DNA from: a virus
UHGV virus genome: UHGV-0139776
Reading direction: 5' to 3' (one strand)
DNA: 64,000 bases
Position numbers and translations under genes: made by a program. The notes below the pieces were generated by a model. It had not been told where the DNA came from and searched no databases. It saw only the letters and a list, made by a program, of their open reading frames with translations. Positions 43,202 through 49,384 of this stretch are shown here, piece after piece (the first letter of the stretch is position 1; each line of letters opens with the position of its first letter).

Positions 43202-43399
43202 GTGCTCTTTGATATAGCGCACATTAACATCGGGAGAATAATCGTGTCATCCAAGGCTAATTATGAATCGCTGGCATCGATCATGCCGCGTAATGAACAG
43301 GAAACAGATGCTGTAGTGGACCCTGTAATCGCTGAAATGAATGCTCGCCTGGAGGCTGAATTTGCAGCTGAGAATGAACATACCACGCAGGGCGACTAG
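43202..43399 (+). CDS. small hypothetical protein, 65 aa
   Basis: ORF only. Confidence 0.25.
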   Translation: MLFDIAHINIGRIIVSSKANYESLASIMPRNEQETDAVVDPVIAEMNARLEAEFAAENEHTTQGD

Positions 43400-44003
43400 G
43401 ACTGTTTTTTGTGTCGGTAGCGGTCCGTCACTCACTCGTGAGGACTGTGCTGCTATAGAAAAAACTGGCTGTTCAATCATCGCGGTTAACAATTCCTGGC
43501 AGATGTTCGATGACATTTATGCCTTATACGCCGGTGATTTGTCATGGTGGAAGCAATACGGATCCACCATACCGGGAGGGAGATTCCGCAAAGTGACAGC
43601 CAACCTGGCGGCGGCGAAATCATTTTCGTTGGAGTACAGGCGATATTGTGGACCGGCGGAAGGGGTAAATAGCGGCGCGCAGGCTATCAGTCTGGCTGCT
43701 GAATCAGGGGCTGAAGTAGTGGTATTAGTCGGCTATGACTGTTCTCTGCAAAACGGCCTTCATTGGCATGGCGCGCACCCTCAAGCCCTACGGAATCCAA
43801 CGCAGGTTTCTATTTCAAAATGGCAACAGCAGTTCCTGGATACCCGCAAAAAACACGCAGATTTACATATTTTGAATGCAAGTAGGAGCAGTGCAATTCA
43901 ATGTTTCCCAAGAATAAATTTAGAGGCAGTGATCGCGTTATTATCGTCGGCAGTGGCCCAAGCGCCGCAAACTTTGTTGCGCCGCGCGGAGTGCCGATTA
44001 TAG
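43341..44003 (+). CDS. MptE-like / DUF115-type Rossmann protein, paralogue 1, 220 aa
   Basis: VGSGPSL...IAVNN...LVGYDCS motif pattern; the 3-prime end overlaps the next gene, so the true stop or frame is uncertain. Confidence 0.4.
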   Translation: MLAWRLNLQLRMNIPRRATRTVFCVGSGPSLTREDCAAIEKTGCSIIAVNNSWQMFDDIYALYAGDLSWWKQYGSTIPGGRFRKVTANLAAAKSFSLEYRRYCGPAEGVNSGAQAISLAAESGAEVVVLVGYDCSLQNGLHWHGAHPQALRNPTQVSISKWQQQFLDTRKKHADLHILNASRSSAIQCFPRINLEAVIALLSSAVAQAPQTLLRRAECRL

Positions 44004-44527
44004 CGGTCAATGGGGCCATCGACTGGCTGAACCGCGCTTCTTATTTTTTCACACTTGATCCATCGCCAGACAATATGCGGCGCGTTGGTCGTGGCCGCCG
44101 TCGCCGTGGTGTTTGTTATTGCATGGCACTACGCGATGTTAAAGAACGTGAAGTCAGAGACGGCGTTCTGTGCTTCCGTCGTGTGGCTGAACGTGGCATG
44201 GAGCCAAAAAATACGAATTCTCCCGAGTGGTGGGCGTGGCGCTGGTCCGCACATTTCGGACTTTGCGAAGATGAGAATGAAATTGCCAGCGGCAATAGTG
44301 CATATGGCGCTCTGAACCTGGCTTTCCATATCGGATTCAAACATGTCGCCCTGGTGGGCGTTGACGCTACACAAGAACCACGCGTTCACTCCGGCGGCAC
44401 GCCAAAAAATCTAAGTCACCTGCCTTTGTTATTCCAGTCTGCGCGTGAACGGATTGACGTTGTTTCATGCGGGAAAATGGGAGGTATTCCGCAGATGACT
44501 CTTAAAGAATGGCTGAAGAATACATGA
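43901..44527 (+). CDS. MptE-like / DUF115-type Rossmann protein, paralogue 2, 208 aa
   Basis: [12 protein letters not shown]...IIAVNGAID...LVGVDATQ. Confidence 0.45.
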
Positions 44528-45201
44528 TGGCACCCACAATTTATCACCGTATCGACGGTACCAAATACAGGAATGTCTGGGTTGTTGGTGATCTGCATGG
44601 TTGCTACACCAGACTGATGTCCGAACTCCATCGTGTGGATTTTGACCCGGCGCAGGATTTACTGATATCGGTCGGCGACCTTATCGATCGCGGTACTGAA
44701 AATGTCGAATGTCTGGAACTATTGCAGATGCCCTGGTTCAGGGCAGTGATGGGGAACCATGAGCGGCTGATGATTGATGCGTTAAGTCCAGATGGCAACG
44801 TGAATAACTGGCTAATGAATGGCGGACAATGGTTCTTCATGCTGGACACTGATCAGGAAATATTAGCCTGGGCGCTGGTGGAGCTGGTAAAGCGTCTGCC
44901 CTATATCATTGAGTTGAACACCGGGCAAGAAACTATCGTTATAGCCCATGCCGACTATCCGGATAATGAATACCAATTCGGTAAGGAGGTGCCGCTTTTC
45001 AACGTTGTCTGGGCGCGCGAGCGTATCAGTGATTCGATGGATGATATTGGTGGCGAAATTTCGGGCGCAGATCGTTTTATCTTTGGTCACACTCCGGTGA
45101 AAAGCCCGAAGACATTCTGGAATCAGCAGTATATCGACACTGGTGCCGTATTTTGCGGAAACCTGACATTGATGAAAGTGAAAGGTGATGGTGCAGCATG
45201 A
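44509..45201 (+). CDS. pap: Ser/Thr protein phosphatase (lambda PPase / calcineurin-like family), 230 aa
   Basis: GDLHG, GDLIDRG and GNHE metallophosphatase motifs. Confidence 0.8.
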
Positions 45202-45899
45202 AGATTGCTTTAGTTTTTCGCTCTGGTGGTGACTATAACGCTTCCGATGTGCAGTGGCTGGTTAATCAACTGCCAAAAGGCTATGAAATTATTTGCCTGA
45301 CAGACCTGAAGCGTTTACATGTACCTGGCGTCAAAGTTGTCCCATTGATCAACCAGTGGCAAAAGTGCCGTGGCTGGTGGGCGAAAATAGAGTTGTTCCG
45401 ACCGGATATAACCGATGATCTGTTCTATCTGGATTTGGACACGGTTATTGCCGGTGATATACGCCCAATCCTAGAGCATCCACCAACCAGCTTCACCATG
45501 CTTAGGGATTTTTACCATCCACAATATCGTGGCAGCGGTGCCCTGTGGATACCAAATAGTGTAAAAGCGCATATCTGGAGTGCATTCTGGCAAGATCCGG
45601 AAGGTTGGATTGCTCGTTGTGTTACTACTGAATGCTGGGGTGATCAGGGGTTTTTGCGGAAGGTTATGGGTGATGATACACCAGCATTTCAGGATCTGTA
45701 TCCAGGATGGTTTGTAAGTTACAAGGCCGATGTTGTGGAACCTGGTTCAAAATATGCGAGCGCGCGTTACTCCAGGGGGAATGGGACATTACCAAAGGAC
45801 TGCCGAATAATCTTTTTCCACGGCAAACCGCGGCCTCGCGAAGTGTCAGAGGATTGGCTTCCCCTCATTAGCTCGTTTTTTGAGCGAGAATCAGAATAA
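45198..45899 (+). CDS. hypothetical protein with DXD-like motif (YLDLDTV), glycosyltransferase-like, 233 aa
   Basis: DLD motif and predicted alternating fold; weak. Confidence 0.35.
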
Positions 45900-45900
45900 T

Positions 45901-47535: not shown

Positions 47536-48042
47536 TTGAGTATTTTCAATAAACACGCACACCAGGAACGTCCGTATATCGTCATAGTTGATATTGATGG
47601 AACAATATCAGAGGCAACTGAAGACAGACTGCATTTGCTTCCGCCACCAGGTAAAGGTGCATTAACAAAGGACTGGAACGAGTTTAATCTCGCCTGTGAC
47701 ACTGATACTCCCATAACTCCAGTTATTGATATTGTGCGCCAGTTATTTAACGTTTACACGGTCTGGTTTGTAACCGGGCGCTGTGAGATCGCAAGGGATA
47801 AAACACGAGCCTGGCTGCGGAAGTACGTAACAAACGGGGCTGAGCCTTTGCTATCTATGCGTCCTGCCACCGATGACAGAAATGACGGCCCAGCAAAGAT
47901 TGATCTCCTTAAGAAAATTGGTCTAAGTAAAATCGCGTTCGCGCTGGAAGATAAGATTGAAGTGGCGCGTGTTTTCAGGAGTCACGGCGTACTTACGTTA
48001 ATGGTCAGGGAGTATGAAAACGCGCTTCTCCATCAACAATAA
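47536..48042 (+). CDS. HAD-superfamily phosphatase-like protein, 168 aa
   Basis: N-terminal VIVDIDGTI (DxDGT motif). Confidence 0.5.
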   Translation: MSIFNKHAHQERPYIVIVDIDGTISEATEDRLHLLPPPGKGALTKDWNEFNLACDTDTPITPVIDIVRQLFNVYTVWFVTGRCEIARDKTRAWLRKYVTNGAEPLLSMRPATDDRNDGPAKIDLLKKIGLSKIAFALEDKIEVARVFRSHGVLTLMVREYENALLHQQ

Positions 48043-48058
48043 TTGCTCTAATAAATCT
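48042..48058 (+). promoter_or_regulatory. C1 operator-like site (16/17) with promoter (TTGCTC-N17-TAAAAC)
   Basis: Motif match upstream of the 48237 gene block. Confidence 0.55.
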
Positions 48059-48236
48059 TGATTTTTAAAACAGAGAAAGTGAAAATAAAAACATGCCGCA
48101 AGGCGCGGCATGTATCCAATCAATCACAGGAGCTGAAAATATGAACACGGCATTCAAAATCATTATGGCCGCGATCTATTTCTGGCTGTTCTCTATCACT
48201 TTTGGCGGCATCGTCGCACATGGGTAAGGGGGATGC

Positions 48237-48641
48237 ATGAAAGGCGAAGTGAAAGAGCGCGGCATGATTTTCAACGATGAGATGGTCCGGGCCATCATCG
48301 AAGGAAGGAAAACGCAGACGCGGCGGATAATGAAAAATCAGCCTGCGGAAGTTGGTCCAGAAGCACCAGTGATGGTTAGAAAAATTGGTGCAGGTTTTCA
48401 GTGGTACGGGGCTGATGGTGTAAGCAGTGTCTTCAATTGCCCCTTTGGTATCGTCGGCGATCGAATTTGGGTTCGTGAAACATGGGCGATATTAGGCAAT
48501 GAGGATGGTTGTAGTGTGGACTGGAACGACAACCTTTGTCGTGGTGATGAGAAGAACGCAGCAAGGATTTATCGGGCCAGTTGTGAGCAAAAGCCTGGTG
48601 ATTACGGCTTATGGTCGATACCGGCTGTGAACATCCTCTGA
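48237..48641 (+). CDS. ASCH-domain-like protein, 134 aa
   Basis: N-terminal VRAIIEGRKTQTRR resembles the ASCH GRKT..R signature. Confidence 0.4.
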   Translation: MKGEVKERGMIFNDEMVRAIIEGRKTQTRRIMKNQPAEVGPEAPVMVRKIGAGFQWYGADGVSSVFNCPFGIVGDRIWVRETWAILGNEDGCSVDWNDNLCRGDEKNAARIYRASCEQKPGDYGLWSIPAVNIL

Positions 48642-49384
48642 CGTATCGCTTTATTCGTGAGGTTGTGAAGTTCTGGAACGTACCGCTAACGGTGTTGCAG
48701 GTCGATATAAATCCAGAACTTGGGCAGCCAAATGGTTATACGGAATGGGGACCAAAGGATATTCAGACGCGAACGCCGGTGCTTAAACCGTTTATGGACA
48801 TGGTTAAAAAGTACGGTACGCCATACATCGGCGGCGCGTTCTGTACTGACAGGCTAAAACTCACCCCTTTCACGAAATATTGCGATGACCATTTTGGGCG
48901 AGGGAATTACATCACATGGCTCGGTATTCGTGCGGACGAACCCCGTAGGCTGAAACCGAAACCGGGCGTCCGGTATCTTGCCGAGCTGTCAGATTTTGAT
49001 AAGTCGGATGTTATCCGGTGGTGGCGAAAACAACCTTTTGATTTGCAAATCCCGGAGCACCTCGGGAACTGTGTTTTTTGCATCAAAAAGTCAACGCAAA
49101 AGCTGGGGCTTGCATGTAAAGACGAACCAGGTCTGATGCGGGTTTTTAACGAACTGGTTACAGGCAAACACGTCAGGGATGGTCATCGCAGAACAGGTAA
49201 AGACGTTATGTACCGTGGTCACCTGACGCTTGACGGGATTGCCAGAATGTATGCCGACAGCGACTACAGAAATTTGTATCAGGCGATGGTGCAGGCCAAG
49301 CGGTTTGATACTGGTTCGTGTTCCGAATCATGTGAAATCTGGGGTGACCAATTGGAGTTGAAATTCGAAGAGGTAGTGGCATGA
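48611..49384 (+). CDS. PAPS-reductase-family (ATP-pyrophosphatase fold) protein, N-terminally short, 257 aa
   Basis: VDTGCEHPLTYRFI aligns to CysH DTGYLFPETYRFI; WLGIRADEPRR motif; no upstream in-frame extension (stop at 48599-48601). Confidence 0.5.
   Translation: MVDTGCEHPLTYRFIREVVKFWNVPLTVLQVDINPELGQPNGYTEWGPKDIQTRTPVLKPFMDMVKKYGTPYIGGAFCTDRLKLTPFTKYCDDHFGRGNYITWLGIRADEPRRLKPKPGVRYLAELSDFDKSDVIRWWRKQPFDLQIPEHLGNCVFCIKKSTQKLGLACKDEPGLMRVFNELVTGKHVRDGHRRTGKDVMYRGHLTLDGIARMYADSDYRNLYQAMVQAKRFDTGSCSESCEIWGDQLELKFEEVVA

Follow-up and report, generated by a model that had tools for sequence, protein, structure and literature searches.

The pmgN-pmgT region of a P1-type phage-plasmid is probably a mosaic of independently inherited units with a candidate glycosylation cassette

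Background

When several small enzyme genes lie side by side under one phage repressor, do they encode a single pathway, or do they have separate histories? This question is raised by eight open reading frames (ORFs) at 43341-49384 of the virus genome UHGV-0139776, analysed here as a stretch of 64,000 nucleotides (the window). The stretch that holds them corresponds, from its nucleotide identity, to the pmgN-pmgT accessory region of a P1-type phage-plasmid. A sequence-only reading had described the ORFs as two MptE-type paralogues (pmgO and pmgP), a Ser/Thr phosphatase (ppp), a DXD-motif protein (pmgQ), a coiled-coil protein of 420 amino acids (aa; pmgS), a HAD-like phosphatase (pap), an ASCH-like protein (pmgT) and a PAPS-reductase-family protein, and had proposed that they form a nucleotide, DNA or surface-glycan modification pathway.

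All eight ORFs were found on the plus strand with the boundaries given in that reading, and its guesses at the gene families were largely correct; the block was over-interpreted as a single pathway. We consider, with a probability of about 0.6, that the region is a mosaic of independently inherited units under C1-repressed promoters, which includes a pmgO-pmgP-pmgQ glycosylation cassette, and not one pathway. The locus is already known as the P1 pmg region, which has been annotated since 2004 and whose operators are known. The remark that none of the individual functions is established therefore holds for experiments, not for annotation; our literature search found no functional or enzymatic study of pmgO, pmgP, pmgQ, pmgS or pmgT.

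Co-inheritance of the genes

The genes were sought with family hidden Markov models in non-P1 loci, which came from viral contigs and from the genomes of bacteria belonging to many phyla. A PmgO- or PmgP-type gene was found on the same strand in 36 of 80 non-P1 PmgQ loci, usually immediately upstream, and ppp, pmgS, pap and pmgT were found in none of these 80 loci. A PAPS-reductase gene lay 3' of PmgT relatives in only 9 of 80 loci. A lambdoid prophage of Citrobacter rodentium has a contiguous pmgO-pmgP-pmgQ between the lysis genes and terminase with ppp absent, and a distant P1-like element (L060) carries pmgM-pmgO-pmgP-pmgQ-pmgR, again without ppp. The link among PmgO, PmgP and PmgQ is reinforced by gene fusions, namely a natural PmgO-PmgP fusion (P0212, 376 aa) and phage proteins of 685–700 aa in BFVD that are named MptE-like and also match the GT8-like PmgQ model. 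Because of the co-occurrence in non-P1 loci and these fusions, PmgO/(PmgP)/PmgQ, which is conserved and mobile, is the sole evolutionarily coherent unit of the region, and the rest is a series of distinct accessory genes that stand next to one another behind C1-controlled promoters. Co-occurrence analysis had been proposed as a check on the single pathway; run here, it showed that the block is not co-inherited beyond close P1 relatives, outside which ppp, pmgS, pap and pmgT were never seen with pmgO, pmgP and pmgQ.

In some of the P1-like contigs L055, L056, L058 and L059, pmgP or pmgQ is frameshifted, or pmgQ is split by approximately 1.3 kb of inserted sequence, which is consistent with a dispensable cassette. 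PmgQ relatives of 26-43% identity are also present in cultured non-Punavirus phages (OR565852 (Citrobacter phiNP), PP925838, PP925824, OP688485, MH719082, AP018399, MN047793, OP883945, OP752703 and MT647606), which include jumbo Xanthomonas and Stenotrophomonas phages and one Pelagibacter phage, and these are possible experimental systems.

Predicted folds of PmgO, PmgP and PmgQ

For PmgO, PmgP, PmgQ, PmgS and PmgT, only profiles or predicted structures were informative, and single-sequence searches of the PDB gave nothing significant for any of the five. NCBIfam has no model for PmgO, PmgP, PmgQ, PmgR, Pap or PmgT, and PADLOC gave no defence-system match for PmgO, PmgP, PmgQ, Ppp, Pap or PmgT.

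The fold of PmgO and PmgP is common to Maf, MptE and CstI. Their scores against Pfam PF01973 were 23.7 and 20.9 bits, respectively, below the cut-off of 34.6, and several of their homologues have a precomputed PF01973 match. The PmgO family profile aligns weakly with the GNGPSL and SG…LSGID motifs of CstII, and PmgP has 328 homologues at E<=1e-3. The recognition of two MptE-type paralogues at 43341..44527 is borne out by the comparison of the two families (hhalign 97.9%, E = 3.4e-13) and by the GSGPSL motif of PmgO, and on the evidence of these profiles the two proteins are classified as distant paralogues of the Maf / sialyltransferase / MptE-like fold. The annotated start of pmgO at 43341 lies inside pmgN, and comparison with homologues suggests M12 (43374), or a position close to it, as the probable true start. 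At the other end, pmgO overlaps pmgP by 103 nucleotides (43901-44003), which encode a non-conserved, low-confidence C-terminal tail of PmgO missing in most homologues.

PmgQ has a GT-A fold like that of solved GT8 enzymes, and the scores of the GT8 family are far above those of toxin glycosyltransferases. D79-L-D81 and H208, placed by sequence alignment, are invariant in 32 sequences, which confirms the DXD protein of the sequence-only reading. No Pfam family, Glyco_transf_8 (PF01501) included, matched PmgQ at E<=0.1, and in the PDB AgtA was reached only at E = 0.088.

Genomic context and a possible virion target

In HK97-like phages, the major capsid gene is separated from the connector or head-completion genes by a PmgQ relative, which may or may not have an MptE-like partner. 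The neighbouring ORFs were surveyed with Pfam in two independent sets of 150, one from 17 viral contigs and the other from 26 prophage loci from genomes. They gave Phage_HCP (head completion; 8 in viral contigs and 5 in prophage loci), Phage_connect_1 (connector; 6 and 5), HK97-gp10_like (6 and 5), Tail_completion_gp17 (6 and 8), Phage_portal (4 and 5) and capsid families (about 10 in viral contigs, and 6 plus 2 Linocin_M18 in prophage loci). FkbM-type and other methyltransferases appeared in both surveys, and two sulfotransferases in the survey of viral contigs; methyltransferases and sulfotransferases of such kinds typically tailor sugars. In P1, the head-completion gene pmgR comes next after pmgQ, and the P7 record labels these genes "head morphogenesis". 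Knockout of pmgR, which is essential in P1, leaves heads and tails unjoined (PMC9024508). Mycobacteriophages provide documented cases of glycosyltransferases that modify capsids and tail tubes (Freeman 2023, as cited in PMC10877033).

From the head/neck neighbourhood of the relatives, the folds, the position of pmgR next to pmgQ and the mycobacteriophage precedent, we infer that the substrates of PmgO, PmgP and PmgQ include one or more proteins of the virion, which the three would glycosylate. PmgQ would be a retaining-type GT8-like transferase, for which the DXD motif and the histidine suggest a metal-bound UDP-hexose donor, and PmgO and PmgP would be transferases of the Maf / sialyltransferase fold, probably working as a pair. 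The three proteins would build a short glycan on at least one head or neck protein of the virion during lytic growth; this glycan would be non-essential in the laboratory and could alter the surface properties of the particle. CRISPR interference in P1 found pmgO, pmgP, ppp, pmgQ, pmgS, pap and pmgT to be non-essential for plaque formation (PMC10695390), and the genes of the cassette are likewise dispensable in a P1 knockout collection (PMC9024508). The glycan part of the earlier proposal stands, in that a transfer function is well supported for PmgO, PmgP and PmgQ; as to the target, the context of the relatives favours head and neck proteins of the virion over DNA or lipopolysaccharide. Only tentatively, and with the odds somewhat against it, do we extend this to a widespread, previously unrecognised virion-glycosylation module of PmgO/PmgP and PmgQ in phages of Gram-negative and other bacteria, spanning P1 and the head/neck clusters of HK97-like prophages in many phyla.

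In four HK97-like contigs, the major capsid gene and the genes like PmgO/PmgQ flank a gene for a small protein of 81-100 aa with a disordered C-terminal tail rich in Ser, Pro, Ala and Lys (L062:7298-7552, L063:3511-3792, L081:1841-2086 and L088:6215-6517). The protein belongs to PHROG families without known function and is, as a lead only, a candidate glycan acceptor. We also looked for Ser/Thr-rich C-terminal tails, as in mycobacteriophages, on the capsid proteins beside PmgQ relatives, and found none.

The remaining genes of the region

Ppp aligned end to end (residues 11-229) with the lambda phosphatase 1g5b at E = 1.5e-94 and matched Pfam Metallophos at E = 9e-16, with the GDxHG, GDxxDRG and GNHE motifs in its translation, so that by sequence it is a λ-phosphatase orthologue. 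This confirms the Ser/Thr phosphatase of the earlier reading, although the gene is ppp, whereas the name pap used there belongs to the HAD phosphatase. The label "PP2B-type" is true at the level of the superfamily, with calcineurin (PP2B) itself matching only at E of about 1e-4 to 1e-3. In L060 and L008, ppp is missing between pmgP and pmgQ, and its presence there would reflect an insertion into the pmgOPQ cassette in the P1 lineage.

The coiled-coil protein PmgS was also found as described. Its family profile matched the Rad51 N-terminal domain (E = 1.2e-6) and the RNAP alpha-CTD (2e-5), and Pfam matches within the family were HHH_5 in 12 of 35 members and RNA_pol_A_CTD in 8 of 35. These matches assign to PmgS a coiled coil followed by a C-terminal (HhH)2 domain of the DNA-binding type, through which it would bind DNA. 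The family is small, with 77 cluster representatives among 1.84 billion proteins. Matches of PmgS to SMC and LmuB were judged to be coiled-coil artefacts.

Pap matched Pfam HAD_PNKP at E = 9.2e-12, its 45.7 bits standing above the cut-off of 27.6, which confirms the predicted HAD phosphatase, and D19-I-D21-G-T23 is present in its translation. It also matched phrog_415 (E = 1.3e-56) and, in the PDB, Pnkp1 4xrp (E = 0.003). Pap is probably a 3'-phosphatase that would act on nucleic-acid ends or nucleotides.

A deletion across pmgT and the PAPS-reductase-family gene

Homology to P1 ends at 48622, where the alignments of the pmgT remnant (pmgT') to L005, L006 and P1 also stop, and from 48617 onward the sequence is homologous to a gene of the PAPS-reductase family found in Stx-type lambdoid phages. 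In many P1-like plasmids both genes are intact, a PmgT-like gene of 242 aa and, next after it, a PAPS-reductase-family gene of 290 aa. In two such plasmids that were aligned, 457 bp that are missing from the window lie between two GATACC copies, as seen from the overlap of the blastn flanks at the one copy that remains. The lost segment comprises PmgT codons 129–242, including the most conserved C-terminal core of the family (W147 to R239), together with approximately 35 codons from the start of the 290-aa gene, among them those of the PP-loop VVSFSGGRTS; intact relatives of 290-293 aa start with ...VVSFSGGRTSAY... The Pfam PAPS_reduct match of the remnant (E = 0.028) begins at profile position 31, which is consistent with the deleted 5' part, and that of an intact relative (4.7e-9) begins at position 3. 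The intact relative also matched SspD in PADLOC at E = 2e-13, and DndC and BrxP weakly. With ASCH (PF04266), the fragment in the window gave no match, and 10 of 16 intact PmgT relatives matched at E<=1, the best at 0.004; ASC-1 in the PDB was matched at E = 0.89.

These data suggest that a deletion at the GATACC microhomology truncated both genes of the OpmgT unit, and the unit is most likely dead here. Both family names of the sequence-only reading were therefore right only in part: intact PmgT relatives are, from their profile scores, weakly ASCH-like, and the ORF at 48237-48641 is a fragment with no such match; the ORF at 48611-49384 belongs to the PAPS-reductase family, and is a fragment without the PP-loop.

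When a probe for the junction was compared with plasmids and complete E. coli genomes, all of the best matches listed were in two pieces spanning 624 bp, so that those plasmids and genomes carry the missing segment. The exact junction was absent from all the other loci examined. From these comparisons the deletion looks private to the source, although an error of assembly could also account for it. In pCRKP-59-KPC, the nearest plasmid, the PAPS-reductase gene is lost through another deletion, of 930 bp, and viral contig L220 has one of 1.9 kb that starts 2 bp from the breakpoint of the window, within ...TGGTCGATA... In P1-like elements, the stretch from pmgT to the PAPS-reductase gene is thus a deletion hot spot, with three independent deletions (window 48617-48622, L220:3380-3386 and L007:7738).

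Correspondence with P1, operators and neighbouring genes

Megablast against phage genomes matched 43341-48622 of the window to 79592-84873 of P1 (AF234172) over 5282 bases at 98.2% identity, and P7, SJ46, RCS47 and further Punavirus records to the same stretch at 98–99%; the nucleotide identity to P1 is 98% across 40001-48622. From pmgL through pap, each ORF is as long as its P1 counterpart and free of internal stops, with 0–8 aa changes per protein. The nucleotide changes are mainly synonymous (24 nucleotide and 8 aa changes in pmgQ, for example). The features of the region are summarized in Table 1.

When up to 3 mismatches are allowed, the window holds 9 matches to the C1 consensus, where chance would give 0.42. 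This enrichment and the identity to P1 indicate that the block is real and not a chance pattern. All four operators at the unit boundaries (Op83, Op86a, Op86b and Op88) and the promoters are identical to those of P1. The operator-like sites noticed before at 45901 and 48042 are, base for base, the annotated P1 operators OpmgRa and OpmgT, and the proposal that C1 operators partition the block into units matches the P1 annotation; OpmgRb and Oppp/Op83 are two annotated operators that had been missed. A sigma-70 pattern scan gave fewer promoter-like sites than shuffled controls and was not used. The hairpin after pmgS suggests that pap is not simply co-transcribed with pmgR-pmgS.

Table 1. Features of the pmgN-pmgT region and their positions in the window
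Feature	Position	Strand	Description
Oppp/Op83 C1 operator	43184..43200	-	Upstream of pmgN-pmgQ; identical to P1; 4 mismatches to C1 consensus
pmgN	43244..43399	+	51 aa; overlaps annotated pmgO start; P1 annotation; 2 aa differences from P1; phrog_2350 (function unknown)
pmgO	43341..44003	+	Predicted Maf / sialyltransferase / MptE-fold enzyme; GSGPSL motif
pmgP	43901..44527	+	Distant pmgO paralogue (predicted)
ppp	44509..45201	+	Predicted lambda-type Mn-dependent Ser/Thr(/Tyr) protein phosphatase
pmgQ	45198..45899	+	Predicted GT8-like GT-A glycosyltransferase; DXD (D79, D81), C-terminal FHGxPRP (H208)
OpmgRa (Op86a) C1 operator	45901..45917	+	Overlaps promoter PpmgR; 0 mismatches to P1
OpmgRb (Op86b) C1 operator	45950..45966	-	Identical to P1
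pmgR	45981..46199	+	Protein identical to P1
pmgS	46201..47463	+	420 aa; predicted N-terminal coiled coil and C-terminal (HhH)2 domain
Terminator-like hairpin	47483..47511	+	11-bp stem followed by T-run, between pmgS and pap; from pattern scan only
pap	47536..48042	+	Predicted stand-alone HAD phosphatase, polynucleotide kinase-phosphatase type (D19-x-D21-G-T23)
OpmgT (Op88) C1 operator	48042..48058	+	Overlaps promoters P1/P2pmgT; 0 mismatches to P1; 1 mismatch to consensus
pmgT'	48237..48641	+	Remnant; codons 1-128 of 242-aa weakly ASCH-like protein, then 6 out-of-frame codons
PAPS-reductase-family remnant	48611..49384	+	5'-truncated SspD/DndC-like PP-loop ATPase, without SGGxxS PP-loop
Deletion junction	48617..48622	.	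One GATACC copy; relatives have 457 bp between two copies

Two further accessory genes lie upstream, within 42351-43177. PmgL (phrog_54) is a zinc-finger protein that resembles DksA/TraR. PmgM, a VRR-NUC nuclease (Pfam E = 3e-4), falls in a PHROG Holliday-junction-resolvase family; both are likewise unrelated accessory genes. Between the OpmgT promoters and pmgT', an unannotated ORF of 28 codons (48141-48227), with GGAG ahead of it, encodes the hydrophobic peptide MNTAFKIIMAAIYFWLFSITFGGIVAHG, and a terminator-like hairpin of the minus strand (48091-48113) lies just 5' of it. Downstream, at 49385-55300, lambdoid early-left accessory genes (ead/Ea22-like, DUF551-type and small unknown ORFs) replace the 3' end of pmgT and most of pmgU-pmgV of P1. 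Variants of this lambdoid cargo were found in hundreds of P1-like plasmids, and homology to P1 returns in patches at 55456, 56991 and 57646 (hot, humD and phd-doc).

Alternative explanations

Several observations weigh against a glycosylation cassette that acts on the virion within a mosaic. PmgO/P partners are lacking in the flanks examined for 44 of the 80 PmgQ relatives, and the Pfam and PDB sequence matches of PmgO and PmgP are under the significance thresholds. The argument for a virion target rests on neighbourhoods in other phages; the cassette of P1 itself adjoins baseplate and tail genes and has early C1-controlled promoters together with an upstream late promoter, and the paper on the P1 virion proteome is silent on glycosylation (PMC9024508). 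A few relatives are found in non-phage contexts or beside Wzy-type O-antigen ligases. In addition, the PAPS-reductase-family remnant could still give a truncated product of 257 aa.

Of the rival explanations, the one that fares best is that PmgO, PmgP and PmgQ modify the host envelope (the lipopolysaccharide core with the P1 receptor, enterobacterial common antigen or capsule), blocking superinfection or the adsorption of progeny to debris. The lipo-oligosaccharide enzyme LgtC belongs to GT8, and two of the neighbours seen beside relatives were Wzy_C. We nevertheless consider this unlikely: the neighbour surveys gave mostly head/neck genes and not envelope genes, C1 represses the P1 promoters, so that lysogens keep the genes silent, in contrast to classic seroconversion genes, and the same cassette occurs in phages of very different host phyla.

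Two further explanations have little in their favour. The fold would allow PmgO and PmgP to be enzymes of the MptE or thiamin-pyrophosphokinase type, in a cassette that makes or destroys some small phosphorylated metabolite, for instance as a countermeasure to a host defence signal. However, Maf as the top match, the weak alignment to the CstII motifs, the GT8 partner and the fusions disfavour this improbable explanation, and the context favours glycosyl over pyrophosphoryl transfer for PmgO and PmgP. We give equally small chances to a cassette that glycosylates host proteins as part of takeover, like the toxin glycosyltransferases, with Ppp as a second host-directed modifier, in view of the GT8 scores that far exceed those of the toxin enzymes, the lack of ppp in the cassette elsewhere, and a location within structural-gene clusters that is atypical of takeover genes.

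Domains of the ASCH type are able to recognise modified bases, the last gene has an intact relative that resembles the phosphorothioation enzymes SspD and DndC, and Pap has a PNKP-type phosphatase domain, all of which would suit one coordinated nucleotide/DNA modification pathway made up of the whole block (transferases, phosphatases, ASCH reader and PP-loop ATPase). Such a pathway is hardly credible and is rejected, because the genes do not co-occur beyond close P1 relatives and because the sole genes linked to DNA-modification families (the PmgT-like and SspD/DndC-like genes) are both truncated here; other P1-like plasmids have lost one or both of them, the ORFs of the block showed no enzyme that would hydroxymethylate bases or otherwise generate an acceptor, and the P1 genes are dispensable, the knockouts showing no change in antirestriction except for five essential genes (PMC9024508).

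Significance

The locus itself adds little, being a known, annotated and dispensable region of P1. What is new is the correction from a pathway to a mosaic, in which two of the eight "enzymes" are deletion remnants, and sharper annotation, namely the predicted (HhH)2 domain of PmgS, the assignment of Ppp as a λ-phosphatase orthologue, and PmgO and PmgP as putative paralogues that also occur fused. The analysis also yields a testable hypothesis of virion glycosylation by PmgO, PmgP and PmgQ in a tractable model phage. If it is true, particle glycosylation, for which the documented cases so far are in mycobacteriophages, would also be a feature of P1 and of prophages in several phyla, with a bearing on phage immunogenicity and particle stability.

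Comparison with known systems

The closest counterpart is the pmgN-pmgT region of P1 itself (AF234172 / NC_005856), which has the same gene order, lengths, operators and promoters. The difference begins inside pmgT at 48622, where the homology stops: the 3' half of pmgT and most of pmgU-pmgV are swapped for lambdoid ea/ead-type genes, and in the window the 457-bp deletion joins pmgT' to the truncated PAPS-reductase-family gene. Ppp shares full-length similarity and all metallophosphoesterase motifs with the NinI phosphatase of lambda (1g5b), but the NinI gene sits in the nin region, whereas ppp lies inside the pmgOPQ cassette. The SGGxxS PP-loop, in addition to the SspD match, links the intact relative of the last gene to the SspD/DndC/BrxP ATPases that serve in DNA phosphorothioation and BREX; the copy in the window is without the PP-loop, is phage-borne, and has no partner Ssp, Dnd or Brx genes.

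The retaining glycosyltransferases of GT8 (AgtA, GlyE, glycogenin and LgtC) have 12-16% identity to PmgQ among the matches listed. Unlike Maf, PmgO and PmgP are single-domain proteins of approximately 200 aa without flanking domains; the fold that they appear to share with Maf, GT42 CstI/CstII and the Pfam MptE-like family (DUF115) is also used by pyrophosphokinases, and their sequence scores are below the Pfam cut-off. Virion glycosylation in mycobacteriophages (Freeman et al. 2023, cited in PMC10877033) involves phage-encoded glycosyltransferase genes that adjoin structural genes and are dispensable for growth, and the context of the PmgO and PmgQ relatives is similar. The hosts differ, those on the PmgQ side being Gram-negative, and the likeness is one of gene context.

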